A DNA stretch of 25,248 nucleotides from a virus (lineage: Duplodnaviria > Heunggongvirae > Uroviricota > Caudoviricetes), in the IMG/VR virus record IMGVR_UViG_2700989400_000006, positions 1-25,248 of that record, one strand, 5' to 3'. Under the pieces are notes generated by a model that did not search any database, was not told the DNA's origin, and saw nothing but the letters and a program-made list of their open reading frames with translations. Positions 1,345-18,648 of the stretch are shown here, piece after piece. The number at the start of each line of letters is the position of its first letter. Position 1 is the first letter of the stretch. Made by a program: the position numbers and the translations under genes.

Positions 1345-1867
1345 CTGTATTTCTGTAATACTCATCCGCAAATTCCTTCATTTTTTCAGCGGACTCAACG
1401 CATTTATTAGCCCCCTTCGCAACCAGCTCTTTTAGATAAGCCAATTGTCTGCCTGTCAATTCAGGGAATTTTCTTTGCATCGAAAGCGGAATACTGTCCA
1501 AAACAGATGCCAGTTCTCCGGATAACCGGGACAGGGCAAAAATAGAGAAAGCTGTATCAATCACCTTATGCTCTGCAACCTGGTTTTTTAACCGCTGAGC
1601 AATAGCCTGTTCTTCCGTCAGGTTAACCCTGGCCTGAAGTAGCCTTTCCTCAAGATCATTTTCACCACCTGAAGATTTCTGGTTTTGTTGACGTCGCTCG
1701 CGATCTATCTCCAGTACAGTTTTAACGTCATAGAAAACCTCTCTCCCCCGGCGCTCAACAGGAGGAACACCCCATTTATCAAATGCCTGTACTGAGATAC
1801 CGATGGAGGAGGCCATGTCGCTTTTATTCAATAAAAAGGCCACAGCCCCTCCATAAACCACCGGCAA
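1337..1867 (-). CDS. Terminase small subunit (Nu1-like)
   Basis: 176-aa ORF immediately downstream of cos on the phage strand, stop overlapping the large-subunit ATG (ATGA). C-terminal two thirds (VIDTAFSIFALSRLSGELASVLDSIPLSMQRKFPELTG) resemble lambda Nu1 (VVETAFCTFVLSRIAGEIASILDGLPLSVQRRFPELEN); N-terminus looks like the Nu1 winged-HTH. Exact start codon uncertain. Confidence 0.7.
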   Translation of the reverse strand: MPVVYGGAVAFLLNKSDMASSIGISVQAFDKWGVPPVERRGREVFYDVKTVLEIDRERRQQNQKSSGGENDLEERLLQARVNLTEEQAIAQRLKNQVAEHKVIDTAFSIFALSRLSGELASVLDSIPLSMQRKFPELTGRQLAYLKELVAKGANKCVESAEKMKEFADEYYRNTDE

Positions 1868-2048
1868 AAAAGCAATACAACAACCACGTTTTTTGTAAAA
1901 CCCTCTGATTTTACATGCTTTTTCGTATAAGAAAGATCATCAGGTTGTTGTGTTTATTTTTCTTTCTTATTACTTATCAAGTAGATATATCAAACGATAA
2001 AACAACAACCATCACCTCAAAAAAACTCGTAAATAGCGAAAACCCGCG

Positions 2049-2060
2049 AGGTCGCCGCCC
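2049..2060 (-). other. cosN cohesive-end sequence (12-nt, lambda-type) within a cos region spanning roughly 1868-2110
   Basis: Plus strand 2021-2060 is the reverse complement of GGGCGGCGACCTCGCGGGTTTTCGCTATTT, which I recall as the left end of the lambda genome; 2049-2060 = AGGTCGCCGCCC is the complement of the 12-nt cohesive end. The flank at 2061-2100 (CGGATCACCGGAAAGGACCCG) resembles the lambda right-end/cosQ side. Confidence 0.8.
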
Positions 2061-2236
2061 CGTAGCCTGCCGGATCACCGGAAAGGACCCGCAAAACCGA
2101 GAATAAGTATCAATACTATTTGTGATTTGAATGATGCACATCATTGAAACGCCATTCATCCATATACCAGCAGCAGTCGGTGTTGCACTTCGTAACTCTG
2201 TGACTACGGTTATAAAAGCATTGGCAACTTTTGCCA

Positions 2237-2274
2237 CCGGCAAGTCTTCAATGGATTTCCCCTGCCGGTTTTTT
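2237..2274 (+). terminator. Hairpin followed by T-run (CCGGCA...TGCCGG then TTTTTTATTTT)
   Basis: 6-bp stem with a ~20-nt loop followed by T6; seen on the plus strand only. Confidence 0.35.
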
Positions 2275-2370
2275 ATTTTCGTCGATGCATAACATTGCAT
2301 TTACATCAATAGCAGCTATTGTCATTAGTATGTTGCATCGATGCATGGGTGGTATTGGCGGTCTTCGCCG

Positions 2371-2405
2371 ACCGGTTCTGTGTAGCTCCCTATGACCGGT
2401 TTTTT
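2371..2405 (+). terminator. Hairpin followed by T-run (ACCGGT...ACCGGT then TTTTTATTT)
   Basis: Two copies of the palindromic hexamer ACCGGT separated by 18 nt, followed by T5; the CCGGTTTTTTATTT unit is a direct repeat of 2262-2276. Confidence 0.35.
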
Positions 2406-2620
2406 ATTTCTAAGATTACAGAAGCCCTTCACTGTATGAAGGGCTTATGTAACTCTTCTTACTTAGTAATTTTCGCACCTTCCGGTATTTCCATGAGTTG
2501 AGAAAACCTCATACTATCCGACAATAATCATCAATATACGATAAAGACATCTGACCAGATTGCAGTATTAAAAGCACTCATGCAGACTACGCCCCTCATA
2601 TCATATACAAGGGGATACTG

Positions 2621-3031
2621 ATGGCTCAGGTTGCCATTTTTAAAGAAATATTTGATCAAGTGCGGAAAGATTTAAACTGTGACCGGTTTTACTCTGAACT
2701 AAAACGCCACAATGTCTCACATTACATTTACTATTTAGCCACAGGTAATATTCACATTGTATTTGAGAGCGATAACACGGTGTTAATAAAAGGTTTCCAT
2801 GATGTTATTCATGTTAGCTTTTGCAGAGACACGCGACTTATAGAAACTTACCTTCATAAGTTGAAATCAAGAGAAATCACATTTCATGAATACAGGGTAA
2901 ATCTGGCTAAAGCTGGAGTTTTCCGATGGGTTACAAATATCCACGAACACAAAAGATATTACTATACCTTTGACAACTCATTATTGTTTACCGAAAGCAT
3001 CCAGAACACGACTCAAATTTTTCCACGCTAA
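2621..3031 (+). CDS. Hypothetical moron protein, YbcV-like (DUF1398-type as I recall)
   Basis: 136-aa ORF on the strand opposite the late genes, AT-rich, located between cos and bor as ybcV is in E. coli DLP12 (from memory). Confidence 0.5.
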
Positions 3032-3255
3032 ACCATAACGTCCGGTTTGATCCGCCTCAGTAGCCGGCACTCCCACACAGGAGTTACCAGTCGGTGCTGT
3101 GGCCATAGTTAATCTGGGTATACAGTAAAGATACAGCACATCTGGCATACTTTAATAAACATTAACAATATGAGATTTCAACTCATTGTTTAGGTTTTGT
3201 TTAAATTTCCACAAATACGATGCACCAAACTTAAAAACACAACGGGAATCACACG

Positions 3256-3549
3256 ATGAAAAAAACGCTACTCACTTTCACACTGGCGCTGCTTATCTCT
3301 GGATGTGCTCAACAGACGTTTACAGTTGAAAACAAACCTACAACAGTAACACCGAAGGAAACCATCACTCATCATTTCTTCGTTTCAGGAATTGGTCAGA
3401 AGAAAACTGTCGATGCAGCCAAAATTTGTGGTGGCGCAGATAAAGTTGTTAAAACTGAAACCCAGCAAACATTCGTAAATGGATTGCTCGGTTTTATTAC
3501 TTTAGGCATTTATACTCCGCTTGAAGCTCGGGTCTATTGCTCACAATAA
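3256..3549 (+). CDS. bor: Bor lipoprotein (serum-resistance, Iss family)
   Basis: 97-aa ORF MKKTLLTFTLALLISGCAQQTFTVENKP...ITLGIYTPLEARVYCSQ with lipobox LISGC; near-identical to my recollection of lambda Bor; transcribed opposite to the late operon as in lambda. Confidence 0.9.
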   Translation: MKKTLLTFTLALLISGCAQQTFTVENKPTTVTPKETITHHFFVSGIGQKKTVDAAKICGGADKVVKTETQQTFVNGLLGFITLGIYTPLEARVYCSQ

Positions 3550-3558
3550 TTACATGCG

Positions 3559-3586
3559 CTGCCCATCAATATGGGCAGTTTTATTT
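3559..3586 (+). terminator. Intrinsic terminator downstream of bor
   Basis: Perfect 8-bp stem CTGCCCAT/ATGGGCAG with 4-nt loop CAAT followed by TTTTATTT, 10 nt after the bor stop. Confidence 0.65.
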
Positions 3587-3631
3587 ACACTGTTAACCCC
3601 TTGGTTGTTTCAGCCGCCGGGGTTTTACTTG

Positions 3632-3880
3632 TTATTCACTGGTATGAGTACGACATCTGGCCATTTCATTCCGGGCTTTACTGTCGCCGCGACAGATGCA
3701 ACGCATCGTATCGCCGTTCAGCGTAGTGATATAAGCCTCATCCGTTTTCTCTACCTGCAAACATGAAATATTCCCGTTCCGGCAATACTCAATTTTTGCT
3801 GCCAGATGGGTATTACGCGGGTAAAACTCCATACGATACATATCCCCCCAGGACATGCACTTCCTCAACCTGACGACCAT
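3632..3880 (-). CDS. Hypothetical protein (82 aa) downstream of the endolysin; coding status uncertain
   Basis: ORF from the track; no transmembrane segment or lipobox, so not a recognisable spanin. An alternative 33-codon ORF (3813-3914) with a GGAGG Shine-Dalgarno overlaps in another frame. Confidence 0.3.
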   Translation of the reverse strand: MVVRLRKCMSWGDMYRMEFYPRNTHLAAKIEYCRNGNISCLQVEKTDEAYITTLNGDTMRCICRGDSKARNEMARCRTHTSE

Positions 3881-3946
3881 CTTCAGTTACCGTAATCTTT
3901 TTCAGTGCGTACATACGTACCTCCGTTCTTTCGTTTTTTGAACAAT

Positions 3947-3967
3947 AAAAAAGCCACCGAAGTGACC
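3947..3967 (-). terminator. Putative intrinsic terminator after the endolysin gene (minus strand)
   Basis: Minus-strand RNA would read GGUCAC-UUCG-GUGGCU (6-bp stem with two G.U pairs, UUCG tetraloop) followed by UUUUUUAUU. The same stem on the plus strand would carry A-C mismatches, so it is strand-specific. Confidence 0.45.
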
Positions 3968-3979
3968 TTTTCGATGAGT

Positions 3980-4534
3980 TTATAAACCAACGCGCTCTTT
4001 CATCCAGCCATAGACAAACGACTCGTTAGCCTCGCGTTTCTCGGCCAGCGCCAGATAACGCTCACCCTGCGTACAGTTCAGGGCTTTCACCAGTACCAGT
4101 TCGCCATCCCTGCCGCGATTTTTCAGATAAGAACGTAACGCATTAATGGTTCGCGGCCCGATCCCCCCGTCTGTAACTATGTCCGGATACAGCATTCCCT
4201 TCTGATTAAACACATTCAGCCAGCGCTGAAGCATTTTTGTGGCTACCGACGGCCCCATGTTTACCCCGGTATCACACAGTTCTGCAGCAATATCAGGAGA
4301 CAGGTTTGCCACCTGGTCAAAACGAGGTCCATACCAATAGTCTGCCTCAAGGATTTCCAGAGCCTGCCCGCGGCTCAAATCACGCATATCACCACGGTAA
4401 CCATGCGCGCGCGCCACTTTTTCAGTAATTCCCCACTTCGTCGCTCCGCCTGTATCGTCAGGATGACTGACATACCCCCCCTCTTTTCCGAGGATTTCAT
4501 CAAAAATTTCATCTCTCGATTTCATATCAGCCAC
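3980..4534 (-). CDS. Endolysin, glycoside hydrolase family 108-like with C-terminal peptidoglycan-binding domain
   Basis: 184-aa ORF; N-terminal motif EILGKEGGYVSHPDDTGGATKWGIT is the GH108 signature as I recall it; no N-terminal hydrophobic (SAR) segment; start overlaps the stop of the upstream membrane-protein gene. Confidence 0.8.
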   Translation of the reverse strand: MADMKSRDEIFDEILGKEGGYVSHPDDTGGATKWGITEKVARAHGYRGDMRDLSRGQALEILEADYWYGPRFDQVANLSPDIAAELCDTGVNMGPSVATKMLQRWLNVFNQKGMLYPDIVTDGGIGPRTINALRSYLKNRGRDGELVLVKALNCTQGERYLALAEKREANESFVYGWMKERVGL

Positions 4535-4805
4535 TCAGGAAAGCAAAAATTTTTGAAACATTACCGCGCGCACGCACTACCATGACACCAAACACCAGGT
4601 TCAGCATCACTACCAGCCAGTCTGCCGGCAACGGATGACCACAGAGATAACTTAACGGCGTTATCGCATACAACAGCATCAGACACCAGGCGCACCACGA
4701 TATCAGCGGTTTGTGTCGGGACTCTTTTCTGCGGTAGAAAAAAAGCGTCAGTACGATAACCGTACATAACGCCGCATTCAGTAATCCTGGAAGATTATTT
4801 GTCAT
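4527..4805 (-). CDS. Lysis-cassette membrane protein (holin/antiholin-like)
   Basis: Start chosen at ATG 4805 (MTNNLPGLLNAALCTVIVLTLFFYRRK...) preceded by GGAGGAGG; the track start 4823 is GTG. Two to three predicted hydrophobic helices; 8-nt overlap with the endolysin start. Confidence 0.5.
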   Translation of the reverse strand: MTNNLPGLLNAALCTVIVLTLFFYRRKESRHKPLISWCAWCLMLLYAITPLSYLCGHPLPADWLVVMLNLVFGVMVVRARGNVSKIFAFLSG

Positions 4806-5187
4806 TACCACCACCTCCTCCACGCTGACGGGAGAACAGACCGGATACCAGTGATGTAATCTCCTGCTGGTGGATGAATGACAGGACTTTTACTGAGAGC
4901 ACCGACACCAGGACCGCACACAACGCATCAACGGAAGCACTGTTAAACCCAATACGTTCCGCCATGTAACCGGCCACACCACGGGCCCCAAGCACACCAA
5001 CAATAAAGGACACCAGAAAATGTGCAGCCACACGCCAGGCTGAAAGTGTCTGCGGCATTGTTGCCACAAATAACGCACCAGCGAACGCACCAAATACAAT
5101 CCCGAAATCCGTCCCGGTAAACAGCCCGAATACCGTCGCCCCGCCGAGCGCCACAGCAGTGCCGGAACCGGATAAGGGTTCAGACAT
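4795..5187 (-). CDS. Holin-like membrane protein (Gly/Ala-rich, ~131 aa)
   Basis: Start chosen at ATG 5187 (MSEPLSGSG...) with AGGAGA 6 nt upstream rather than the track start 5217; several Gly/Ala-rich hydrophobic segments; sits at the head of the endolysin module. Confidence 0.55.
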   Translation of the reverse strand: MSEPLSGSGTAVALGGATVFGLFTGTDFGIVFGAFAGALFVATMPQTLSAWRVAAHFLVSFIVGVLGARGVAGYMAERIGFNSASVDALCAVLVSVLSVKVLSFIHQQEITSLVSGLFSRQRGGGGGNDK

Positions 5188-5272
5188 ATTTATTCTCCTG
5201 TAAATAAAAAGGACCATCAGCGGCCCTAAAAAACTTTATCAAAGGTACCCGCAGATACCTTTTGTAGGCTGT

Positions 5273-5425
5273 TTATTCAGATTTGCGAAGTAAAGGCCAG
5301 AGTAAGACCGTTACCATCGCCACCAGCACACCATCAGCCAGTACCGACATCAGCCATCCAGTGAAATCCACTGCCACTACCAGAAACAACAGGATGGCAG
5401 CCAGCACAAGGCCCGCACTTTTCAC
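5273..5425 (-). CDS. Small hydrophobic peptide (50 aa), possible membrane peptide of the lysis module
   Basis: GTG start overlapping the TGA stop of the TerB-like gene (GTGA); translation VKSAGLVLAAILLFLVVAVDFTGWLMSVLADGVLVAMVTVLLWPLLRKSE is almost entirely hydrophobic. Below the ORF-track size cut-off. Confidence 0.3.
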   Translation of the reverse strand: MKSAGLVLAAILLFLVVAVDFTGWLMSVLADGVLVAMVTVLLWPLLRKSE

Positions 5426-5847
5426 AGATACTGCTCCAGTGGTAACTGAAGCGCCTGTGCAATTTTCTTGAGCTGCGCTTCTTCATCCGGACCAATGCCA
5501 TCCTGATCAGCGATATCCAGACAGAGGCAAAGCACGTCAACCGCCTCAGTTGTCCCCGCCACATCAGCCAGCTCACGCAATGCATGCGCATTCGCACTAC
5601 GCGGTGACGCTTCATAACGGGCGCGGATATTGGCGCTCATCTGGGCAATCTCACCAGAGAACGGTGCAAAAGCAGGAAGCGCAGCAATAGTTTTCTCCAG
5701 TACTGCGATTTCTTTCGCATCGCAGGTGCCGTCGGCATATGCAATGGAATATGCGCCCCAGACGGTCGCCTCCACCGCATCACGGTTCTCCATCTTCTTC
5801 ACTTCTGTGATGGCCTTGCGGGTTTTCTTTTTGAAAATACCTAACAT
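5422..5847 (-). CDS. TerB-like (tellurite-resistance TerB fold) protein
   Basis: 141-aa ORF; C-terminal DIADQDGIGPDEEAQLKKIAQALQLP resembles the acidic helix motif of TerB-family proteins as I recall them. Confidence 0.55.
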   Translation of the reverse strand: MLGIFKKKTRKAITEVKKMENRDAVEATVWGAYSIAYADGTCDAKEIAVLEKTIAALPAFAPFSGEIAQMSANIRARYEASPRSANAHALRELADVAGTTEAVDVLCLCLDIADQDGIGPDEEAQLKKIAQALQLPLEQYL

Positions 5848-5981
5848 CGTGACTTTTCCTTTGCGTAGACGAGCCTGCGCCAGATGGTTACCAGTCCACA
5901 GTGAAAGTCACACTGACAATCCCGTAAGCACCTCCTGAAAGGCTCTGTGTTTTTGATGTGCGCCAGGTGTGGCTCAGATAC

Positions 5982-6005
5982 AAAAAAAGCTCGCCGTAGC
6001 GAGCT
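5982..6005 (-). terminator. Intrinsic terminator (minus strand) after the 92-aa gene
   Basis: Minus-strand RNA: AGCUCGC-UACG-GCGAGCU (perfect 7-bp stem) followed by UUUUUU; 24 nt downstream of the stop at 6029. Confidence 0.6.
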
Positions 6006-6028
6006 AACAGAAAATATGAAGCATGTTT

Positions 6029-6307
6029 TTATCCACGAAGTATGACGTTGAATTCATCCATACCGACACGGCTGGCTATCTCGTTGTATTCCTCAACAAG
6101 AGCCAGCAATTCTGAATTAGCAGCCATGAACTCTTCAAAAACCTTATGGATGGCATCACTGTTTAATAAAACAATGTTCTTTCCTGAAAGGCGATCAGGG
6201 GTAGAAAATATAACTGTCAAACGACTAAAGGCCCTGGCTCGTTCAGCATTAACATCCTCAATACGCTGCAACAAGCTGGAGCACCTGGAAATATCATCAA
6301 TATTCAC
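6029..6307 (-). CDS. Hypothetical protein (92 aa)
   Basis: ORF from the track, co-oriented with the late operon and followed by a strong intrinsic terminator; no recognisable motif. Confidence 0.5.
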   Translation of the reverse strand: MNIDDISRCSSLLQRIEDVNAERARAFSRLTVIFSTPDRLSGKNIVLLNSDAIHKVFEEFMAANSELLALVEEYNEIASRVGMDEFNVILRG

Positions 6308-6827
6308 TCTACTCCTGTCATCTGGATGATAATCATTTCACGGAGAGAAGCACTCAGAAGTACCACTGAAGTATAACTGGTGACCAGCTGCTTACACATC
6401 TGTTGCCATCCTGCTGATGATAAGTCGATATTAACCCTTCTGTCTATAAACGAAACAAAGGATAAGTTCAGGTTTTAAACACACTGCCAGGATAAAGTAT
6501 TGTATACAGTATAGAAGAGCGTTATTGAATGACATAAAAAACCAGACCTAATCCCTTATCCGGAAGATATATCAAATAAACGGGGAAAATGTATTAAGAT
6601 GGCGTTCCTATTCTCTCCATCCCTGATGTCCACGTAACTCGTTATAGAATCAGAACGCCATCTGAATACACAGAAAAAAAGCTGGCTTCACACCCTCCTG
6701 CATGTGTGAACGCAGTGCCCGACCACGTGCTTTCGCAACCAGCGAAAATCAGTTTTAAATACCGAAAAACGATAAGAATATATCAGAACTTCCAAGCATC
6801 CTGCTTGGCTTAGATATTAATCGAGGA

Positions 6828-7913
6828 TTAGCTCCTGTTCTTATCTAATTGTGCATTTCGCAATTTATCGTTCAGCACCAATATTTCACCAACTGTTTGT
6901 TCAAAACGCCCGGACTCAAGTTCAACCCCAATCGTGCGACGCCCCAATCCCATTGCTGCTTTTATTGTTGCCCCCGATCCCATAAAAAAATCCGCAACCA
7001 CATCCCCCGGACGACTGCTGGCAGAAATTATCTGACGCAACATATCCGCCGGTTTTTCGCAGGGATGCTTACCCGGATAATACTGTACGGGCTTATGCGT
7101 CCAGACATCCGTATAAGGAACGGCGGCCGATACAGAAAAATAACGCCGCAGAGATTTGTATTCCTCAAGCAGACTGGCATATTGCCGGTTCAGTTCACTG
7201 TATGTGCTGACCAGCAGTTGGTGTGGCGTTGCCAGCTCCCCACGCTGGTGTTTTTCTTCTGCAACACGCGCGAACAGCGCCTGCAGTTTTCTGTAATCAG
7301 CTTCGTTCGGTAACTGCCACTGACTGGTACCAAACCAGTGCGACACCATGTTTTTCTTTCCGGTGGCTTCCGCTATCTGTTTGGACGTTATTCCCAGTGA
7401 TTCACGCGCATCACGAAAGTAAAAAATCAGCGGGGCCATGACGTGTTGTTTAAGCTCGCGCTCCTTTGCCGCATAGCCGGCATTTTTTGGCTGATATGGC
7501 CACTGATAATGTTCGGCAAACAGAATGCGCTCTGTTGCCGGGAAATACGCCCGCAGGCTTTCTTTGTTGCACCCGTTCCAGCGTCCGGACGGCTTCGCCC
7601 AGATAATGTGGTTCAGCACATTAAAGCGCTCACGCATCATGATTTCGATATCAGATGCCAGGCGATGACCACAAAACAGGTAAAGACTTCCGGCAGGCTT
7701 CAGTACCCGCCAGAACTGAGCCAGACACTGGTCCAGCCATTTTAGGTAATCATCGTCGCCCTTCCACTGGTTATCCCAGCCCTCGGGCTTCACTTTAAAA
7801 TATGGCGGGTCTGTGACTATAAGATCGACAGAGTTTTCCGATAAGGTCTGGATAAATTCCAGGCAATCAGTGTTGATTAACTCACAACTGGATATTTTTA
7901 CAGTATTAGCCAT
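6828..7913 (-). CDS. DNA methyltransferase, N6-adenine/N4-cytosine class
   Basis: 361-aa ORF with the catalytic DPPY motif (LIVTDPPYF) near the N-terminus and a glycine-rich AdoMet-binding motif near the C-terminus (FFMGSGAT); this order is typical of the N6_N4 methyltransferase family. Confidence 0.9.
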   Translation of the reverse strand: MANTVKISSCELINTDCLEFIQTLSENSVDLIVTDPPYFKVKPEGWDNQWKGDDDYLKWLDQCLAQFWRVLKPAGSLYLFCGHRLASDIEIMMRERFNVLNHIIWAKPSGRWNGCNKESLRAYFPATERILFAEHYQWPYQPKNAGYAAKERELKQHVMAPLIFYFRDARESLGITSKQIAEATGKKNMVSHWFGTSQWQLPNEADYRKLQALFARVAEEKHQRGELATPHQLLVSTYSELNRQYASLLEEYKSLRRYFSVSAAVPYTDVWTHKPVQYYPGKHPCEKPADMLRQIISASSRPGDVVADFFMGSGATIKAAMGLGRRTIGVELESGRFEQTVGEILVLNDKLRNAQLDKNRS

Positions 7914-8063
7914 AGATCAATAAGCACTTCTCTGATAGGCTCATACCGCTTTTGCGCAAAGCAGATGGGCCTGAGGTTTGCTTGTGACCTCAACACATGA
8001 GCAGATGGCTGGCAGGTGCCGCTAACACCCACCAGCCGCCCATTACCACAAAGTAAAAAGCCT

Positions 8064-8261
8064 TCACTGCGGAAGGCGTCTGTAACAACCGAACTGATAA
8101 TCTGCCAGACCCGCCATCACAAGCTGGGTCAGTATTAACTGGCAGCGTTCGCGTGAAAGGTAAGTATTCTGCGCAATTTCCCCAACTGTTGCCGGTTCAG
8201 TGACGCTTAATTCATTAAACACCACTCTGGCTGTTTCGGTCATATCCTGCTGTTTTAGCAT
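8064..8261 (-). CDS. Hypothetical small protein (65 aa), possible winged-helix fold
   Basis: ORF from the track; the segment TVGEIAQNTYLSRERCQLILTQLVMAGL looks like a helix-turn-helix recognition unit. Weak evidence. Confidence 0.4.
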   Translation of the reverse strand: MLKQQDMTETARVVFNELSVTEPATVGEIAQNTYLSRERCQLILTQLVMAGLADYQFGCYRRLPQ

Positions 8262-8435
8262 GTCTTTTTCTCTTTATTGGTTAACGTGACATACCAATAA
8301 CTCTTGTCGAAAAAGCCAGCAAGCTGAAAGACCGGTATTAATAACCACCAGCACATTTTATGTACCACACCATTTTTCTGGCATAAAAAAACCGCTCAAT
8401 GCCGGGCAGTAAAAATCTTCATTACTCAAGAAATT

Positions 8436-9149
8436 TTAACGCACTCTGATAGTATTAATTTCAAAATCATTAATATTTCCGCTATTAAATATAACGAATT
8501 TCTTACCCCCACTCCTGTATGATTTCGATAACACCAGACGATCATCATAACGCGCAATAATGTAATACCATACATTCTCATAGTGGATCGCCTGATATTC
8601 CCTCTTAAACTGTGGTTTGTACCAACCGGCAATAAGAGAGAATGCCCAGAAATAAATCATAAACCCAGCCATCATGAACTCAATTCGGTGATGGCGAATA
8701 AAAGACATTTCCGAAAAACATTTGACTGAAACAAGTCTTCTTCCAGACCTGACAAAAAGCGTGATTGTAAAGGCAGCAAGAATGCAGAAAATCAGTACAT
8801 CTGGCTCAACATGCTGATGAATTACCGAAAACTCCAGAACAGGTGGAATAAAAAGCAGCAATATCGCGAGAAAAAGCCGGATAAAACTCAAATTTTGTAT
8901 ATTGCGCTTTTGTTTTATGCCCAAAAAGAAAACAATACCAACTCCCCATCCAATAAGGAATATAACGATAACTGTCACAGCATAAAACAAACTTCGTGCA
9001 ACATCATCGACACCAGCCCCGACAACCCACCATGGAAAGCCATAGTAAAATGAAGTACCCCATCCATAGAAATAAGCGCTTCCCCATCCTAGACAGCCCA
9101 TATAAGCAACAAAAAGTGAAGAGTTTCTGAGCAGAGCACTGTCATTCAT
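8436..9149 (-). CDS. Integral membrane protein (237 aa) encoded on an AT-rich moron
   Basis: Four to five hydrophobic, Trp/Tyr/Phe-rich segments in the first ~170 aa followed by a soluble C-terminal tail; first gene downstream of the tR'-like terminator; hand counts on sampled 60-nt lines give ~27% G+C. Confidence 0.6.
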   Translation of the reverse strand: MNDSALLRNSSLFVAYMGCLGWGSAYFYGWGTSFYYGFPWWVVGAGVDDVARSLFYAVTVIVIFLIGWGVGIVFFLGIKQKRNIQNLSFIRLFLAILLLFIPPVLEFSVIHQHVEPDVLIFCILAAFTITLFVRSGRRLVSVKCFSEMSFIRHHRIEFMMAGFMIYFWAFSLIAGWYKPQFKREYQAIHYENVWYYIIARYDDRLVLSKSYRSGGKKFVIFNSGNINDFEINTIRVR

Positions 9150-9291
9150 AGTAACACCATTAACAACTCAAAAATATCAACACATATTACATAACAAATT
9201 GGATTCCATGCAGTCAAGGGGCGTCATTGATGGAGAAAGTATTGGCACAATCGTCATCACGTTTAATGTCTATGCCATTTTTTGGGGGGAT

Positions 9292-9313
9292 AAAAAACCC
9301 ACTCGGTCGCGGG
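9292..9313 (-). terminator. tR'-like intrinsic terminator downstream of the Q-like gene
   Basis: Minus-strand RNA: AAAA-CCCGC-GACCGA-GUGGG-UUUUUUAU (5-bp stem with one G.U pair, then U6), about 70 nt downstream of the pR'-like promoter. Confidence 0.55.
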
Positions 9314-9367
9314 TTTTACTAGCTTTGCCATCACGTATAAAAACGGCAAAATATCAGATTTACACGA

Positions 9368-9403: not shown

Positions 9404-10075
9404 CTATGAAAATGCCGCCTTTTGTTTTGAACGTGTTCTCTCCACTAACAATAAAGCTTCACTATCCAGCCGATGAAAAATGTGTTTCATTGCAACCCAG
9501 TGACCAGTAAATGTCTTGGACCAGTTTTTGGTTGTTACTCCCACCAGTAACGCCAGTTCCTGGTATTCGTAACCTTCCCCACCAAAAAGCTCAGCTTTTA
9601 CCGCCTGCGCCGCCAACCAGATCAACGTCTTCAGGCGCACCAGAGTTTTTCCTGCAATTTTTCTGGTACCGGATTGAGCATTAAATTCAGTCCACGCCCA
9701 CTGCGTTATCGCGATCTGATGCTCCCAGCAAATGCTACCGCTGTAACACCACAGCAGCCAGGCTTTATGATGTTCTTCAAGAGACAGAACGGCGCGTCGC
9801 CATGATGATGTCGAAAACTCAACCGGACTGACCAGGGCAATTGATGAACCTTTCGCCAGCGATTGCTTTCCCGGGATCGGTGGATTATCCAGCGTTACTA
9901 TTTTTCCAGTGACCTTATCGCGGTACCGGATTTTTTTACGTCTGTAACGCCCTGTATTGAACATGGCATTCTCCTGCCAGGCTTCAAGCTGACCTTTTGT
10001 TGCTCCACTCAAATCAGCGGTGGCGATCGTGAGCTGCTCACGCACAAACTGTAAATACTGGTTATTCATGCGCAC
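9404..10075 (-). CDS. Putative late-gene antiterminator (Q-like, non-lambda family)
   Basis: 223-aa ORF directly downstream of rusA and directly upstream of the pR'/tR'-like elements. No lambda-type zinc finger; the assignment rests mainly on position. Confidence 0.5.
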   Translation of the reverse strand: MRMNNQYLQFVREQLTIATADLSGATKGQLEAWQENAMFNTGRYRRKKIRYRDKVTGKIVTLDNPPIPGKQSLAKGSSIALVSPVEFSTSSWRRAVLSLEEHHKAWLLWCYSGSICWEHQIAITQWAWTEFNAQSGTRKIAGKTLVRLKTLIWLAAQAVKAELFGGEGYEYQELALLVGVTTKNWSKTFTGHWVAMKHIFHRLDSEALLLVERTRSKQKAAFS

Positions 10076-10428
10076 TCCAGTTCTGTGATTTTTATCCCCA
10101 GCCGACCACCGGGAACAACCTGACCGCGCATAATATTAACTTCATCAAACTGCTCGTCGTCGATAAGCAGTCCCGCATGTGTCAGTGCATCCAGTGGTGC
10201 TTTCAGAATATTGTCCAGGTCACGACGGCGCTTATCCGGTGGCTCTGCAATAATTTTTATTGCCAGCCTTCCGGACAGATTTAATTTCAGCCGCTGCTGG
10301 CGAACAATAAGCGCCACATCCCGGCGATAACGCTCCCCTGCTTTTGATACAAAATATGTGCTGCCACGACGACGCCAGTAGGTATTTACCGTCGGCGGGT
10401 AAGGCAAAACAAATTCTATCCCCATCAA
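10066..10428 (-). CDS. rusA: Holliday-junction resolvase RusA
   Basis: 120-aa ORF MMGIEFVLPYPPTVNTYWRRRG...EPPDKRRRDLDNILKAPLDALTHAGLLIDDEQF; the DKRRRDLDN motif and length match RusA as I recall it. Confidence 0.9.
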   Translation of the reverse strand: MMGIEFVLPYPPTVNTYWRRRGSTYFVSKAGERYRRDVALIVRQQRLKLNLSGRLAIKIIAEPPDKRRRDLDNILKAPLDALTHAGLLIDDEQFDEVNIMRGQVVPGGRLGIKITELECA

Positions 10429-10437
10429 TAACCTCTT

Positions 10438-11487
10438 TTATCCGAGCACGCCGGTTGCAAAGGCGTGATCAAGAAAACGAAAAATTAAATCAACCTGAGA
10501 ACCATGCTTTTCTTCGAACGCCAACGGATCTGCATGAAGCTCGTTATGATGTTTACGACACAACGGTAACGTGAAAATATCGTGGGCCTTTGTTCCCATT
10601 CCGCCCTGACCATGACCTATCAGGTGATGGGGATCGTCAGCTGGCTTACCACAGCACGCACACGACTGTGTCTTTACCCAGCGTGTGTATTTCTCATTTA
10701 CCCAACGGCGACGTTTAGGTCGCTTCATGAAAGATTCCGGGGACTCAGGATCAACGGCGATGCTTACCACCGCCTTTTCCTGTGGTGAGTTTTGTTGCTG
10801 GTGGACGTGAGGCGGTAGCGCAATATTTTTTGTGCGCTGCTTCAGTATGCTGGTGGCTGTCTGTTCTCCCGGTACGATGTCGCTCTCGCGATACACAGAG
10901 AGGATTTTTTCCACCGGTAATCCCAACGAACGACGTGATACTGCCTCAGGTAGAGCATCCACCATCTGATTGCAAACCGCCCACCAGGATAATTCAGCCA
11001 GCGATAATTCCCGCTCCTGCGTGCCATTCATTGCGTGACGTATAACCTCAAGCATCCAGGCTGTCAGATTTTGTTGAGCAAGTTGCTCGAGTGATTCCGA
11101 TGTCTGGTCGCGCAGCTGGTTGTCGCAGTGCCAGCACAATACCATCGCGCCGGTACCGTAACGGTGAATAACGGTTTCACTATGGTGGTAATCACCATGA
11201 GGCCACTGGCAGGATTTGACATGGCGCAGTAACCAGTCAGACAGTGCACCAGCGCCGCCAGCAGCACGAATCACTCGTTTGTTACTGAAAAACGGCAGTA
11301 ATGATTTATCCTCCGCCAGCGGCTGGCGAACGGTAGGGACGACTCCGGACGGCAGACCGCGCATGCTTTTTGGTTCCGGCTCCACCAGTACTCTGTCGTT
11401 ATGGAATACCGACATTGATTCACGGCCTGGCTTAACGATAACCACCCCGAGTTCCGGTACCGGAACAGGTCGAAGTAATACCCGCAC
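10438..11487 (-). CDS. DUF968-family phage protein (YdfU-like) with C-terminal Cys/His cluster
   Basis: 349-aa ORF, GTG start after GGAGG; C-terminus SCACCGKPADDPHHLIGHGQGG...LCRKHHNELH suggests a zinc-binding or HNH-like module; size and position match Qin YdfU as I recall. Confidence 0.65.
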   Translation of the reverse strand: MRVLLRPVPVPELGVVIVKPGRESMSVFHNDRVLVEPEPKSMRGLPSGVVPTVRQPLAEDKSLLPFFSNKRVIRAAGGAGALSDWLLRHVKSCQWPHGDYHHSETVIHRYGTGAMVLCWHCDNQLRDQTSESLEQLAQQNLTAWMLEVIRHAMNGTQERELSLAELSWWAVCNQMVDALPEAVSRRSLGLPVEKILSVYRESDIVPGEQTATSILKQRTKNIALPPHVHQQQNSPQEKAVVSIAVDPESPESFMKRPKRRRWVNEKYTRWVKTQSCACCGKPADDPHHLIGHGQGGMGTKAHDIFTLPLCRKHHNELHADPLAFEEKHGSQVDLIFRFLDHAFATGVLG

Positions 11488-12226: not shown

Positions 12227-12382
12227 TTACTCCTCAGGTTCGTAAGCTGTGAAGACAGCGACCTCCGTCTGGCCGGTTCGGATTCGTACCTCGCAGAGGT
12301 CTTTCCTCGTTACCAGTGCCGTCACTATGACGGTTAAACAGATGACGATCAGGGCGATTAACATCGCCTTTTGCTGCTTCAT
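12227..12382 (-). CDS. hokD: Hok/Gef-family type I toxin (51 aa)
   Basis: MKQQKAMLIALIVICLTVIVTALVTRKDLCEVRIRTGQTEVAVFTAYEPEE matches my recollection of E. coli HokD (RelF). A perfect 9-bp hairpin (12198-12219) follows the stop, consistent with the folded 3' end of hok-type mRNAs. Confidence 0.9.
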   Translation of the reverse strand: MKQQKAMLIALIVICLTVIVTALVTRKDLCEVRIRTGQTEVAVFTAYEPEE

Positions 12383-12439
12383 AGCCTGCTTCTCCTTGCC
12401 TTTCGGCACGTAAGAGGCTAACCTAGATTTGCCGTTCAT
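12227..12439 (-). CDS. Mok-like upstream reading frame containing hok (70 aa, same frame)
   Basis: In-frame N-terminal extension MNGKSRLASYVPKGKEKQA preceding the Hok methionine, as in chromosomal mokC/hokC pairs (from memory). Confidence 0.5.
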   Translation of the reverse strand: MNGKSRLASYVPKGKEKQAMKQQKAMLIALIVICLTVIVTALVTRKDLCEVRIRTGQTEVAVFTAYEPEE

Positions 12440-12949
12440 AGATTGAGCCTCAGATTAATGTTAAACGTCTTGCAGGACGCGTAATGTTAACTGGGGCTTT
12501 TCTCTATCTGCCTTTGGTGTTCATGCCTGAGGCAGATAGCCTCAAGCACCCGCAGCAATTCTACTTAACTCCCGTCACCTCGCCAATATAAAATCAATCA
12601 GAAAGGCGATCCGTAAGAACAACAGCAAGACAATAAATTGCCATTACAGCCGCAATAGCTAGCGCACATTTGAGAACCAGCACGACAACCTCCTGTATTG
12701 GACGTACACCAATTCTGATAAATATGAGGCTGTCTCATCATTGATTCAATATAACTATTGGGTATAGTTTCTGTGATTTTGTTCTGTAGAAATGGAACAC
12801 AACAACCAGTCACCACCAGCACTTCTTTAAATACGCCAAGTCCGACGCAAGCTAACCTTCTAGTCCGCTTTGAGCGAAGAGCGGACATTGCTAACAGCAT
12901 CCTGTGTGAATCATTACGATCAAATCGATGACTAGATAAGTACAAACCG

Positions 12950-12994: not shown

Positions 12995-13651
12995 TCACAA
13001 AATTCTGAGAGTTTCTAAGATGGATAAAAGTGTTGGAAGCTGACTCTCTCTCACACGGAATCTACCCGTCCTAGATAATTCCGTTTCAATTCCGTTAACG
13101 AAGAAATGTACGGAATCAAAAACGGCCGAACTATTCATGTATTTATTCTGATAAATTTCTTGGAGATTCTTTGAGCTTACTATTTTTGTCTTTGCTAAAG
13201 TAAAAGGATCAACAGAGATATTAGATAGAGACATGGATTTTATCTTGATGTCAAAGCCCTCAGAAAGACCATTTACAATTTTTCTCAGATCAAATTCTAC
13301 TGGTCTCAAGCCACTATCTTCACCAAATAGTTTTTGCACCATAGTATAAGGCACTTTCATACTTAATGGAGGATTAGTGGCATATAGTATGATTTTTTTC
13401 CCTTGTCTGACGCCAAAGTCCACATTTAAGTAAGTTGCTATTTCAACCTCTGAACGCTCGCCATTAGCATATTCTAAGCTTTGCTTGCTAATGCTTCTCA
13501 TGGTAAATCTTAGTTTAAGCACTTCAGAGTTATTAATGATTTGAAAACCATATCCTTTATCTTCATCATAGAGGTTGTCATTTACTTTATGTAATAACTC
13601 ACTTTTAGTTATATCCTTTTCTGCTTTATAAATTTTTACCTTTATCATCAT
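12995..13651 (-). CDS. Cassette gene C: uncharacterized protein (~218 aa), third gene of the AT-rich three-gene operon
   Basis: Start chosen at ATG 13651 (MMIKVKIYKAEKD...) with AGGAGG 6 nt upstream, overlapping the TGA of gene B as ATGA; the track start 13678 is TTG. No motif I recognise. Confidence 0.75.
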   Translation of the reverse strand: MMIKVKIYKAEKDITKSELLHKVNDNLYDEDKGYGFQIINNSEVLKLRFTMRSISKQSLEYANGERSEVEIATYLNVDFGVRQGKKIILYATNPPLSMKVPYTMVQKLFGEDSGLRPVEFDLRKIVNGLSEGFDIKIKSMSLSNISVDPFTLAKTKIVSSKNLQEIYQNKYMNSSAVFDSVHFFVNGIETELSRTGRFRVRESQLPTLLSILETLRIL

Positions 13652-14895
13652 CCAGCCTCCTGATTCAAAGTCTCGCAAGACATAGCTTTCGTTACTGGGT
13701 ATCGCTTGGTATGCTCTTCGATAATAAAGTCATTAATCAAAAATATTTTATCTTCTAATTGTTTCATGACTTGATCAAAGTCTGCGTCACTGAGTTTTTC
13801 TCTCTCTGCGGATGCAGAGTTGCTTTCTTTGTATAACGCTCTGAATTTTATATTTTTCCCAAGATATTTATCATCGAAACTAAGTTCAAAAGTTATAGTA
13901 TGATTCTTAACTACTGAGGAAAATGACTTCCATCGAATTAAGCTTCGATAAAACCCATCACTGCACAGTTCCTTAATTTGAGGTGCGTTCACTAATGATA
14001 GGCCATCATACGCGGCATTGTTAATGTTAAAAGTTAGGTTTTCATCATCGTCAGATGCCATTTCCTGATTATTAATGTCATCATCATTTTCGTTATCTGT
14101 AGAAGGTGAAATCTTGTTTAATAACTCTTGTGTTTCTTCGTTATTATTTCCTTCGAGATTATCTCCATTAATATCCAGAGATGTTTTTATTCTGCTTACT
14201 CTAACCTTTTCAAGACCAGCATATTCAAGTCCTGTTTTTTTATAATTTCCATCAAAATCATAAAGATGAACAGCAAAAATATTCCTAAGATCTGTATCAA
14301 CGATACTTGATAAATCTATTTCGTTGACAACTATGTTGTTACAAACTGTTGATGAATATGTATCAATTATTTGCTTGAGAATTTCTGAAATGCGTGGCGT
14401 ATAGTTATATCTTACTGAAACATATCCTTTTTTTACTATAAAAACTATACTCCCACTGTACAATTTTTTCTGCTGAAACTTACCCCTTCTAAAATCAAAC
14501 TCAGTATAATCAATAGATATATGATAGGTTTGCAAGCCTGAGTAATGATCAATTTTCTCATGCCCTAGCAACTTGGGTCTATTTTCTTTCACTTTGTTTA
14601 CAACGTCATAGAGTTTCTCTATATCAAATTCTTCATATATACGTTTTACTGAGAAGACGTCTTGGCTGGGTTTGGTTGCCAGTTTATCTTGTACTTCTCT
14701 GATGTGATTATATGAAAATGGCAGGTCTGATAATTTTTCTATCAATACCTCTTTTGATAAGTTAGATGGGAAAATTATCCCTCTATTGAAGGCGATTTTC
14801 CTTAATGTAACATCTGTGATTTTTGCACTGTTAGAGTGGAGGGCGGTATAAATGTCACTTTCGTTTGAAAACAACGTAGCTTGATATTTATTCAT
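13648..14895 (-). CDS. Cassette gene B: uncharacterized protein (415 aa) with a central acidic low-complexity linker
   Basis: ATG 14895 lies 10 nt after the gene A stop with AGGAG in between. Residues ~240-285 (NNNEETQELLNKISPSTDNENDDDINNQEMASDDDENL) form an Asn/Asp/Glu-rich linker between two halves. No Walker A/B or other motif I recognise. Confidence 0.8.
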   Translation of the reverse strand: MNKYQATLFSNESDIYTALHSNSAKITDVTLRKIAFNRGIIFPSNLSKEVLIEKLSDLPFSYNHIREVQDKLATKPSQDVFSVKRIYEEFDIEKLYDVVNKVKENRPKLLGHEKIDHYSGLQTYHISIDYTEFDFRRGKFQQKKLYSGSIVFIVKKGYVSVRYNYTPRISEILKQIIDTYSSTVCNNIVVNEIDLSSIVDTDLRNIFAVHLYDFDGNYKKTGLEYAGLEKVRVSRIKTSLDINGDNLEGNNNEETQELLNKISPSTDNENDDDINNQEMASDDDENLTFNINNAAYDGLSLVNAPQIKELCSDGFYRSLIRWKSFSSVVKNHTITFELSFDDKYLGKNIKFRALYKESNSASAEREKLSDADFDQVMKQLEDKIFLINDFIIEEHTKRYPVTKAMSCETLNQEAG

Positions 14896-14905
14896 GTCAT
14901 ACTCC

Positions 14906-15997
14906 TTATGAAAAGTGACATTTTCTATTCACCTGCTTGCTGGCAACCTGGTACTCAAATATAGATAGCTTTTGATTAACAAAAGGAATGGATACTATTT
15001 TTTCCTTTAACGTTTCTATATGAGATTGAGTGAAAGAATATATTCCTATGTAATCATTAATGGCGGATTGCAAATGAATGCTTGAGTGTGATGAGAACGG
15101 AGTTATAACAAATATTTTGTTAAATTGATTGAGTAATTGATAGTTAAATATATACTCTAAAAGAAATATAAAGTGGTTACTGGAATCAATCTCTTCCTTC
15201 CAGAATATATTCAATATTTTATTTCTTATTCTATCGCCACCATCATTTCTAATATATTCGTGTTCATATGAGTAAAAAATCATCCCAGATGTTATCATTT
15301 CAATTGTGGCTGGAAGGATTTTCCCTTTCGTTGCTATTTTATTATGTTTGTCAGGGTAAAAATATGTACAGTTCTCTATCTCAGGAATTTTTTGCCATAA
15401 CATATTTGTTTCTTGTGTTACTTTGTCAGTAATTCCTCTTCTAGTCTCGATGTGTTCTGTAACATCTAGTAAAAATCTGATCATAGTTGGGTCAAAAACG
15501 GCAATCACAGAGTTCTCTGGAAAATCATAACTTGCTGTGGCTGCTCCATTTAATTTCTCAATTAAATCAGAGTCATATTTATTGTCATGATTATATATAA
15601 AAAGTAGGCCGTTAACTTGATATTTCTCATTTGTGCTGTCAACAAATAGACGCCGCCACTCAGGACTTCTTGGCGCGCAAGCTACCTGTTGTGATAAACT
15701 TCGTACAGTGTTCAATATTGATTTTGTACCGTCAAGCGTGCTGGCACAATAAGATTTTAAATCTGTTTGTATATACTGAGTTATATCTGAATAAGGATCT
15801 TTATATTTGAAGACTACATCCGTAGGATGAGTTTTTTTTGGGTTTTCAGATAAAAGTTGTTTAGCGTTTAGATGAGATCTCAAACAACAGTCCCAACTTA
15901 TATCCGTTGTATTTTGGGTTTTCCAGCCTAACTCATCAAAAATTCTACTGGAAATGATACCTGCAATCTCATCAATATTCTTAGTTTCGCCGCCCAC
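14906..15997 (-). CDS. Cassette gene A: uncharacterized protein (363 aa), first gene of the operon
   Basis: GTG start at 15997 preceded by GGAGGA; no in-frame ATG upstream. The N-terminal ~90 aa carry a pattern compatible with, but not diagnostic of, a PD-(D/E)xK nuclease core (FDE ... HPTDVVF ... IQTDLK). Confidence 0.7.
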   Translation of the reverse strand: MGGETKNIDEIAGIISSRIFDELGWKTQNTTDISWDCCLRSHLNAKQLLSENPKKTHPTDVVFKYKDPYSDITQYIQTDLKSYCASTLDGTKSILNTVRSLSQQVACAPRSPEWRRLFVDSTNEKYQVNGLLFIYNHDNKYDSDLIEKLNGAATASYDFPENSVIAVFDPTMIRFLLDVTEHIETRRGITDKVTQETNMLWQKIPEIENCTYFYPDKHNKIATKGKILPATIEMITSGMIFYSYEHEYIRNDGGDRIRNKILNIFWKEEIDSSNHFIFLLEYIFNYQLLNQFNKIFVITPFSSHSSIHLQSAINDYIGIYSFTQSHIETLKEKIVSIPFVNQKLSIFEYQVASKQVNRKCHFS

Positions 15998-17827: not shown

Positions 17828-17892
17828 CTCTTTTGATACCGAATCTTTTTACTCACAAATTGCCGGAAGTGATCCGGTATGAATATTGCGAG

Positions 17893-18318
17893 TCAATGCA
17901 CAGCCACAATATTTCCTGCAGGGCCACCACGATTCATCTGGTTGAAACCAGCGATCGCCACTGCGACAAAATCATCAGCGTCTCTCACCAGTCGTTCCCG
18001 CGTCTCCACTAGTTCCCGAAAATATGCTGAGCTATGACTGCGCATTCGGGCCACCAGCAGAGGTGGCATTGCTTTTTCGATAGCTGGTAACAACGCCTGA
18101 ATTTTTTTAACCGCATCAGGGGTGTCTTTCTCCACCCAGCGGAAAATTTTCTGAGTATTGCGAGCCAGGGCTTCCGGATGGTTGTCGTCATACAGTTCCG
18201 GGAACGTCATTCCCAGCTCGAAATACGCTTTGGTAATTTTCGCAGCCGGTACTTTTTCGCCGTCCGGATGCGCCCAGGCATTCATCGCCATGCGGATGTG
18301 TTCATGCTTGATTTTCAT
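17893..18318 (-). CDS. YdaT-like protein (CII-position gene of Rac-type immunity regions)
   Basis: 141-aa ORF whose start overlaps the Cro-like gene stop; size and position match Rac YdaT as I recall; no sequence check possible. Confidence 0.5.
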   Translation of the reverse strand: MKIKHEHIRMAMNAWAHPDGEKVPAAKITKAYFELGMTFPELYDDNHPEALARNTQKIFRWVEKDTPDAVKKIQALLPAIEKAMPPLLVARMRSHSSAYFRELVETRERLVRDADDFVAVAIAGFNQMNRGGPAGNIVAVH

Positions 18319-18569: not shown

Positions 18570-18648
18570 ATCACCCTCACAGTGTGAACTTTAAGTACAT
18601 GCTATAACAGAACTGACAGTACATTCAAGAGCGAATATCATTGAACTT
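18570..18648. promoter_or_regulatory. Divergent promoter/operator region between the Cro-like gene and the repressor gene
   Basis: 79-bp intergenic region between divergent start codons; contains two direct AGTACAT motifs (18594-18600, 18618-18624); the same motif family recurs downstream of the repressor gene at 19144-19184. Confidence 0.5.

Follow-up and report, generated by a model that had tools for sequence, protein, structure and literature searches.

A TfpB/STM1630-family membrane protein gene carried on a cassette behind the antiterminator Q gene of an Escherichia coli lambdoid prophage

The window analysed here is a 25,248-nucleotide stretch of DNA (IMG/VR virus record IMGVR_UViG_2700989400_000006, positions 1 to 25,248) from a lambda-like (lambdoid) prophage of Escherichia coli; between positions 8000 and 9450 it is 99.9% identical to strain MB07081. 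Behind the gene for the antiterminator Q, the minus strand contains an open reading frame (ORF) for a protein of 237 amino acids (aa). This ORF is a selectively maintained gene for a five-pass inner-membrane protein, and it is the sole cargo of a cassette of approximately 0.9 kb that is inserted exactly at the T-run of the terminator tR'. By its sequence, architecture and motif the protein is a member of family PF27470 (TfpB), and Moraxella tfpB, Salmonella STM1630, phage 434 gp68 and the copies adjacent to the Shiga toxin (stx) and heat-labile toxin (LT) genes all belong to this one family. Taken jointly, the family identity and the architecture of the cassette may be regarded as practically certain. 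The best explanation overall, which adds dual expression and a protective role at the envelope, is offered tentatively and with somewhat less than even confidence.

A single-gene cassette inserted at the tR'-like terminator

The boundaries of the cassette were obtained from a comparison with the P13-6 prophage, which has the same DUF968, RusA and Q genes and the same 65-aa gene (frameshifted in P13-6) without the membrane protein gene. In a blastn alignment, the homology of P13-6 to the window breaks off at 9286 and is taken up again at 8393, and the two junctions have 15 nt in common; the insert is therefore 892 bp in length. It is flanked by an imperfect direct repeat, GGGTTTTTTATCCCC (9300-9286) and GGTTTTTTTATGCCA (8393-8379), that corresponds to the T-run half of the tR'-like terminator. 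Since prophages that lack the membrane protein gene carry the 65-aa gene as well, the latter lies outside of the cassette. The original prediction, made from the window alone, had placed an AT-rich insert at 8262-9291, a range that was narrowed by this comparison to 8394-9285.

The base composition of the insert is less extreme than was first thought. A value of about 27% G+C had been given for a block of about 1.1 kb, but the measured content is 38.4% for 8262-9291 and 38.9% for the coding sequence. The block is AT-rich only in a moderate sense, being below the window as a whole (45.1%) and below the Q, winged-helix (65-aa) and methylase genes (48-49%). The lowest 60-nt line in the block, 8442-8501, has 22% G+C and is the only line with so low a value.

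In the comparative genomics literature on lambdoid phages, a moron is a discrete, dispensable and independently expressed insert. The cassette is present or absent as a unit between collinear phage genomes, and its base composition differs from that of its flanks, if modestly. A terminator belonging to the cassette was not found, which counts against its being a moron: the segment following the gene (8370-8425) contains no stable hairpin when folded (-7.5 kcal/mol, z = +0.56), and the next hairpin, a terminator-like structure at 8060-8077, overlaps the stop codon of the 65-aa winged-helix ORF. The prediction of a moron-like insert with a multi-pass membrane protein is upheld by the absence of the gene from the syntenic P13-6 prophage, by the lower G+C content, by the conserved promoter-like block in the insert, and by the location of its relatives behind a Q gene in 68 of 80 phage contigs.

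The start of the late operon is marked by the Q gene, and two elements follow it (Table 1). A pR'-like promoter begins 8 nt past the Q stop codon, and the block containing it is kept in alignments with 434, SS17 and E. albertii; by analogy with the pR' promoters of lambdoid phages, the TTGCAA-17-TATATT site would serve as pR'. For the tR'-like hairpin, the curated record of phage 434 has a terminator annotated at the equivalent position. No minus-strand ORF of at least 40 aa intervenes between this hairpin and the ATG at 9149, and thus the late transcript has as its first gene, as had been proposed, the 237-aa ORF, which is preceded by a weak Shine-Dalgarno sequence GGTG (9158-9155). Its placement between the terminator and the methylase gene was correct on the side of the hairpin, but on the methylase side the 65-aa winged-helix ORF separates the two genes.

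Table 1. Positions of the cassette, its internal elements and the neighbouring genes in the window
Feature	Position	Strand	Basis or remark
Cassette with membrane protein gene, 892 bp	8394-9285	minus	blastn of P13-6 prophage against the window
Coding sequence, 237-aa inner-membrane protein, TfpB/STM1630 family	8436-9149	minus	ATG start
Promoter-like block: -35 TTGACT (9217-9212), 18-nt spacer, TG-n-TATGTA (9196-9188)	9188-9217	minus	alignments
T-run remnant, degenerate copy of terminator 3' half	8379-8393	minus	aligns with T-run of P13-6 terminator
tR'-like intrinsic terminator: 9-bp stem, 6-nt loop, U6 run	9292-9317	minus	fold of a 51-nt segment, -13.7 kcal/mol
pR'-like sigma-70 promoter, TTGCAA-17 nt-TATATT	9396-9368	minus	consensus scan
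Antiterminator Q gene, 223 aa	9404-10075	minus	PF06323, E = 3.6e-90; phrog_304; sets late-operon start
RusA gene	10066-10428	minus
DUF968 gene	10438-11487	minus
Winged-helix (TrmB-like) ORF, 65 aa	8064-8261	minus	weak Pfam match to TrmB, E = 0.0026; phrog_331
N6/N4 DNA methyltransferase, 361 aa	6828-7913	minus	PF01555, E = 3.4e-43; PADLOC MTase_II
Holin-like ORF	4795-5217		PF16931
Holin-like ORF	4527-4823		positional counterpart of 'phage holin family protein' annotated in a near-identical genome

The position behind Q is nearly constant among phage-borne relatives. In the 80 IMG/VR phage contigs compared, which are the best 80 of 188, a Q gene ends 211-283 bp upstream of the membrane protein gene in 68 cases; 45 of these Q genes are of the PF06323 type and 23 of an unrelated 273-aa type. 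On the downstream side the neighbour may be the winged-helix gene (the most common, in 39 of the 80), DUF3927, a holin, TerB or stx. With the position of Q nearly constant and the downstream neighbours variable, it is the pR'/tR' junction to which the gene is linked, rather than any downstream partner. The gp68 gene of phage 434 and ECs0816 of the Sakai prophage Sp3 occupy the same position, and in HM670 the order is Q, the gene, tRNAs and holin.

A promoter-like block is situated inside the cassette. Of the 80 phage loci, 73 contain the exact pattern TTGACN-N14-TTGTTATG, invariably 39-41 nt upstream of the start codon, and six of the seven remaining loci deviate from it at a single base. The spacer takes twelve different sequences, while the boxes and the distance between them are conserved. 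Such an arrangement, in which only the spacer is free to change, reads as a promoter. Between alleles whose proteins are 56% identical, the region from tR' to the start codon is mostly divergent, with TTGAC(T/G)-N14-TTGTTATG kept as an island, and the block is retained on a plasmid of enterotoxigenic E. coli (ETEC) and in a prophage remnant that have no intact Q and pR' upstream. Against this, a stricter consensus scan did not call the block, and the -10-like hexamer is weak and without the canonical final T. From its pattern of conservation, the block is probably active as a promoter, although with no great margin of confidence. The promoter of Salmonella STM1630 was considered as an equivalent of the block and rejected, as its mapped -10 element is about 200 nt upstream, unrelated in sequence and without alignment to the E. 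coli cassette.

The sequence TTGTTATG ends in ATG. In window-type alleles this ATG is followed directly by TAA, forming an ATG-TAA start-stop (9183-9190 in the window), and in 434-type alleles it opens an in-frame N-terminal extension of 14 codons (MSCKPMLSSCIGVV-MKDG...). No Shine-Dalgarno sequence precedes this ATG, which is therefore assigned to the promoter-like block, with a regulatory mini-ORF as a less favored possibility.

Two sources of expression are proposed for the gene. The internal sigma-70-like block (TTGACT-N18-TGtTATGTA) would probably give low expression in the lysogen, and Q-antiterminated read-through from pR' would probably give very high expression late in lytic growth. 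Such dual control has its counterpart in the stx and LT-II toxin genes, which are likewise carried between Q/tR' and the lysis genes; by this comparison it is likely for the membrane protein gene, although the toxin genes encode a secreted product and not a membrane protein.

Family membership, architecture and distribution of the protein

The precomputed annotation of all 104 homologues is PF27470 (TfpB). Direct scans of the 237-aa protein against Pfam-A and NCBIfam returned no family, the Pfam set scanned being without a PF27470 model. In the Prokaryotic Genome Annotation Pipeline (PGAP), a locus with 97.6% identical DNA is labelled 'STM1630 family protein'. An hhalign comparison matched the protein to Moraxella bovis TfpB with a probability of 99.6% (E = 2e-24, 28% identity, 228 columns). 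The two proteins are of the same length class (261 aa for M. bovis TfpB and 237 aa for the window protein) and have in common an N-terminal motif and a C-terminal YY(I/V)L...L(I/V)L β region. The Salmonella STM1630-group members are 46-48% identical to the window protein, the one adjoining sseJ having been identified as STM1630 by a match to a published deletion-primer sequence. Homology to phage 434 gp68 and O157 Sakai ECs0816 extends over the full length at 56% identity. An Acinetobacter protein also called 'TfpB', which we take to be a PilB-like ATPase, was rejected as a namesake.

The 434 and Sp3 loci (CPT_434_68 and ECs0816) merit a closer comparison. They are found in the same slot, after a Q82-like Q gene and a terminator, and share the promoter-like block. 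Their allele differs, however, and they are followed by DUF3927/TciB and a NanS-p esterase or holin rather than by the winged-helix and methylase genes. CPT_434_68, named 'putative membrane protein', and ECs0816 are annotated with an N-terminal extension of nine residues.

The family layout, to which the window protein conforms, is a chain of approximately 230-260 aa with five transmembrane (TM) helices and a short β-rich C-terminus, and 30 members align collinearly. An AlphaFold2 model of the window protein (predicted local distance difference test, pLDDT = 82.5; predicted template modelling score, pTM = 0.75) has TM helices at residues 10-36, 47-81, 88-111, 116-136 and 155-181, in agreement with hydropathy, a short amphipathic stretch at 142-153 and a five-stranded β domain of about 55 aa at 184-235. 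A usable model needed distant relatives in the alignment; a shallow alignment gave a pLDDT of 64. The four to five hydrophobic helices and C-terminal tail described in the original prediction are thus accounted for, as is the aromatic character of the protein (F/W/Y = 19.8% of residues). Lysine and arginine are concentrated in the loops at 78-90 (three) and 134-156 (six), and the loops at 37-53 and 109-117 are acidic. Under the positive-inside rule, this distribution would place the N-terminus in the cytoplasm and the modelled C-terminal β domain in the periplasm.

An N-terminal motif, W-x2-AY-x-YGWG-x3-YYG-x-PWW...ARSL, is located at residues 22-54, and its columns are invariant or nearly so. 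The alignment of 30 members has no Asp, Glu, His or Cys that is invariant across the whole family, which suggests that the protein acts by binding and not by catalysis.

Comparison of the window gene to five alleles gave ratios of nonsynonymous to synonymous substitution (dN/dS, or ω) of 0.12-0.19, and the gene is therefore maintained by purifying selection. Constraint is very strong over residues 1-55 (ω = 0.02-0.10). A chance ORF was rejected on these dN/dS values and on the existence of more than 100 homologue clusters at 90% identity. The gene could still be a functionless passenger or a decaying remnant that hitch-hikes in a recombination hot spot, and truncated or frameshifted copies do occur in ABU 83972, Avibacterium, M. 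lacunata and others, with no phenotype reported for the phage-borne copies. With a dN/dS of about 0.15, the low ω of the N-terminal third, full-length conservation across proteobacterial families, and an upstream block held at a conserved, fixed spacing, this explanation is extremely improbable.

The family is sparse at large and common in E. coli. A profile search of 1.84 billion representatives yielded only 71 clusters at 50% identity, whereas 1197 of the 5426 complete E. coli genomes searched by blastn contain a relative. With one genome scanned by profile for each species, relatives turned up in Escherichia, Salmonella, many Pasteurellaceae, Conchiformibius and four species of Moraxella. 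The copies of Pasteurellaceae and Neisseriaceae stand alone between apparent housekeeping genes; Aggregatibacter has several paralogues per genome, and the copies in Avibacterium and Spirabiliibacterium are often truncated, as are some Moraxella copies. A very divergent enterobacterial subfamily is found in Klebsiella electrica and Mangrovibacter. Distant enterobacterial members adjoin an SRAP (YedK-like) gene in both of the contexts examined (1703-6741 of three compared stretches and 5262-8403 of a fourth): one at the end of a P2-like prophage beside umuDC-like genes, and the other in an icd-adjacent island beside a gene pair encoding an AAA_23/AAA_21 ATPase and a 167-aa protein. A 3-kb contig of a metagenome-assembled 'Veillonella sp.' genome (JAIITD010000172.1) has a 434-type allele with lambdoid NinI/Q-like ORFs and is most likely an Escherichia contaminant that was binned in.

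The founding member has a different setting. The 261-aa ORF of M. bovis is enclosed by two pilin gene segments in inverted orientation, next to the Piv recombinase, and in M. equi and M. lacunata the family ORF adjoins a Piv-type recombinase and a pilin gene, with tfpB frameshifted in both species. This is the classical tfpQ/tfpI inversion region, the internal ORF of which was named tfpB. In a single assembly of M. lacunata NCTC10359, the pilin inversion region is present in both orientations on two contigs, with tfpB co-oriented with the full pilin gene on one and opposed to it on the other; tfpB in this strain is a 195-aa ORF that aligns to residues 1-141 only and is thus frameshifted. The window gene has no pilin gene or invertible segment nearby, its neighbours being Q, the winged-helix gene and the methylase gene. 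Judged from these gene neighbourhoods, pilin linkage is a trait of the genus Moraxella and not of the PF27470 family.

Candidate functions weighed against sequence, context and literature

Searches for a function gave few leads. PADLOC returned no families for the membrane protein at E<=0.1, and the only PHROG matches (phrog_1521, 14371, 17164 and 3985) are families of unknown function. A sequence profile search of the PDB gave no matches at E<=10, that is, no relative with a solved structure, and a Foldseek search of the viral predicted structures in BFVD gave none at E<=0.001. Weak Pfam matches among the 30 members, to DUF2070 in six (best E = 0.36) and to bPH_10 in two, were dismissed as noise.

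No holin, antiholin or spanin family was matched in Pfam or PHROG, nor was there any homology to a lysis or virion membrane protein, which the original prediction had named as evidence that would speak against it. A holin or lysis protein was rejected given the lack of a holin family match, the length of 237 aa, and the location of the holin-like ORFs of the window about 3.2 kb downstream. The protein might instead act only late in lytic growth, with no role in the lysogen, by tuning the timing of lysis or by stopping progeny from injecting the dying cell. Its gene is the first of the Q-dependent transcript, is located about 1-3 kb upstream of the holin in 434 and Sp3, and has no stable terminator separating it from the late genes downstream. 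However, intact and selected homologues occur far from lysis genes and outside of phages, a chain of 237 aa with five TM helices is unlike a holin, the cassette-internal block is conserved, and the gene is absent from otherwise similar phages. An exclusively late lytic function is thus considered very unlikely.

The mechanism that is preferred assigns the protein a role as a membrane adaptor, probably non-enzymatic. The near-invariant aromatic and glycine-rich TM1-loop-TM2 module (W22..AY.YGWG...YYG.PWW.V..G.D..ARSL), which is predicted to face the periplasm, would dock on a conserved partner in the inner membrane or periplasm, and specificity would be determined by two rapidly evolving parts, the TM4/cytoplasmic loop and the tip of the periplasmic β domain. 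The pay-off would be protection of the host at the level of the envelope, with entry of superinfecting phage DNA being blocked both in the lysogen and late in infection. Among the dispensable membrane genes of prophages, those for inner-membrane proteins that mediate exclusion or abortive infection are a frequent kind. Exclusion is favored for this reason, and because the gene is sporadic cargo in several prophage types and has fast-evolving segments. HK97 gp15, P22 SieA and T4 Imm serve as functional models, being likewise inner-membrane proteins of small size that are expressed in the lysogen from non-essential phage genes, although they have no sequence relationship to the window protein and occupy a different genomic slot. 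Entry-level superinfection exclusion is the single most likely pay-off while being itself doubtful, and the wider reading as superinfection exclusion or abortive infection is speculation.

Several observations weigh against exclusion. The protein has no similarity, by sequence or by fold, to a described exclusion, abortive-infection or defence family. The literature searches found no report on the phage-borne members, including any on plating or DNA-entry effects, and no phage phenotype for STM1630. The N-terminal motif is kept from Escherichia to Moraxella and Neisseria, which is unusual for proteins engaged in an arms race, and the ω values of about 0.6-1.1 at residues 108-160 and 211-237 were obtained in the closest pairs over short segments and are noisy. 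The founding member belongs to a pilin locus and not to a phage. Lastly, STM1630 clusters with a virulence regulon of the Salmonella pathogenicity island 2 (SPI-2)/PhoP type, and its mutants were reported to be attenuated in calf and chicken transposon screens.

The Salmonella data raise the alternative that the protein is an envelope factor of lysogenic conversion or host association that is not directed against phages and that would aid survival in an animal host, for example under envelope or membrane stress, the gene having arrived together with toxin and effector genes and stayed next to them. STM1630 is a chromosomal single-gene islet between steB and sseJ that is not prophage-borne. Beyond its regulon and the attenuation in the two screens, it has its own promoter, silenced in ST313 by two single-nucleotide polymorphisms in the -10 element, and it is expressed in strain 4/74, with a lower level in D23580 than in 4/74 during macrophage infection. 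On the other hand, clean STM1630 deletions had no growth defect and no significant defect in macrophage replication, and the hypermotility seen in one screen is of uncertain value since a follow-up study noted that some motility effects were possibly polar, owing to the resistance cassette.

Copies beside virulence genes are also found in E. coli. In the Stx prophage of E. coli 2012C-4221 the order is Q, the family member, tRNA-Ile and stx2j (435-3714 of the compared stretch), and in another Shiga toxin prophage a 260-aa ORF in the Q position is followed by stxAB and then the member (2162-5714 of the compared stretch). Placed between Q and stx2j, or directly after stxAB, the member thus lies within the Q-dependent transcription unit of the toxin. 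The LT/STb plasmid of ETEC1721 carries a 74%-identical copy about 870 bp upstream of eltA and divergent from it (1486-4213 of the compared stretch), which keeps the promoter-like block without a Q gene and looks like what is left of a phage late region around the LT genes. A further copy lies between insertion sequence elements on the enteroinvasive E. coli (EIEC) plasmid pINV, and ABU 83972 has a pseudogene copy near iroB. Together with the gene by sseJ, the copies beside eltAB, on pINV and near iroB look like remnants of the same phage slot. Proximity to toxin genes, although it favors a part in host association, is more simply explained by the shared 'moron slot' from Q to the lysis genes and by such remnants, and a host-association factor is judged unlikely.

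The homology to M. bovis TfpB over its full length raises a further alternative, that the protein is an accessory or modulator of type IV filaments. It would bind a pilin, a pseudopilin or the assembly platform and would alter or disable a type IV pilus, competence pilus or type II secretion pseudopilus; as an example, Arg52, an invariant residue where TM2 ends on the periplasmic side, could form a pair with Glu5, which is conserved in prepilins. The Moraxella gene lies within the pilin inversion segment and is co-oriented with the expressed pilin in one phase, a distant member is three genes upstream of an N_methyl (prepilin-type) gene, and the chromosomal relatives are concentrated in Moraxellaceae, Neisseriaceae and Pasteurellaceae. 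These families bear type IV pili and are naturally competent.

The apparently unrelated TfpX, TfpY and TfpZ proteins, which are FimB-like and occur in Pseudomonas aeruginosa, Dichelobacter and Neisseria, resemble the window protein in general layout and are accessory proteins that interact with pilins (PMC11841053). They are likewise small polytopic inner-membrane proteins with a periplasmic C-terminal domain, with conservation in the TM helices and variable C-termini, and their gene is likewise situated just past a terminator that attenuates its expression (PMC11841053). In contrast to the window protein with its five TM helices and β domain of about 55 aa, they have three TM helices and a larger α/β periplasmic domain. 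The full-length members of the profile search that were aligned included no FimB-like protein, all being of the TfpB layout; TfpY and FimB are set apart by their description.

A role in type IV filaments faces several difficulties. Linkage to pilin genes is confined to Moraxella, with the gene unlinked in Pasteurellaceae, Neisseriaceae, Salmonella and E. coli, and tfpB is frameshifted in M. lacunata and M. equi. The pairing of Arg52 with Glu5 is pure inference, and the most distant subfamily does not retain Arg52. Lambdoid coliphages are not known to use type IV pili, the expression of which is rare in E. coli. No open-access functional work on Moraxella tfpB was found, and to our knowledge the function of Moraxella TfpB itself has never been established. 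A filament role, too, is judged unlikely.

Other features of the prophage and meaning for the family

Several features elsewhere in the window were observed alongside the cassette. In the early region, three consecutive minus-strand ORFs at 12995-15997 (363, 415 and 227 aa) have no Pfam match and give matches to PHROGs of unknown function; they match PADLOC Hp1, Hp2 and Hp3 in order (E = 8e-41, 1e-10 and 4e-11) and are a candidate three-gene defence system. In MB07081, which is nearly identical in the late region, the interval that matches 12995-15997 is annotated differently and includes a zeta-toxin-family gene (17011-18759 of the compared stretch). An Rfam sok antitoxin RNA at 12377-12551 on the minus strand (111.7 bits) lies beside a 70-aa ORF at 12227-12439, and the two form a predicted hok/sok-type toxin-antitoxin module. 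The antisense RNA DicF is found on the plus strand at 20429-20480 (Rfam, 76.7 bits), and in a near-identical genome dicB is annotated about 0.75 kb beyond the early-region ORFs (25046-25234 of the compared stretch); DicF/dicB is a feature of a Qin/Kim-type immunity region. An 823-aa ORF in the early-left region (21138-23609, plus strand) has a C-terminal Rv2179c-like 3'-5' exoribonuclease domain (E = 2.4e-67), its N-terminal part of about 640 aa being without family assignment.

The membrane protein gene is an ordinary, common prophage passenger from a recognised but uncharacterised family, with no proven anti-phage role. What is new are the exact boundaries of the cassette, the conserved promoter-like block inside it, and the near-obligate position behind Q whatever the type of Q. 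An expression unit can now be defined that consists of read-through at pR'/tR' and the cassette-internal promoter-like block. Three items that have been studied separately, the tfpB ORF of the Moraxella pilin switch, Salmonella STM1630 and the "first late gene" of lambdoid phages, are unified as one family that is common and medically well placed, being found in O157 Sp3, in Stx prophages, on an ETEC LT plasmid, on the EIEC plasmid pINV and beside Salmonella sseJ.

From this unification come hypotheses that can be tested across systems, namely exclusion, pilus modulation and envelope fitness. A bolder proposal, and an improbable one, is that the TfpB/STM1630 proteins are an unrecognised class of mobile inner-membrane 'gatekeepers', in which the TM1-loop-TM2 module with Arg52 would dock on the N-terminal helix of a type IV pilin or pseudopilin or on a DNA-entry channel, and control by Q would let the phage shut an envelope machine so as to exclude competitors or disable pili. 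If true, this would provide a functional link between the Moraxella ORF, STM1630 and the stx- and LT-adjacent gene of pathogenic E. coli. The value of the locus is that it offers a tractable way into a widespread and uncharacterised family.

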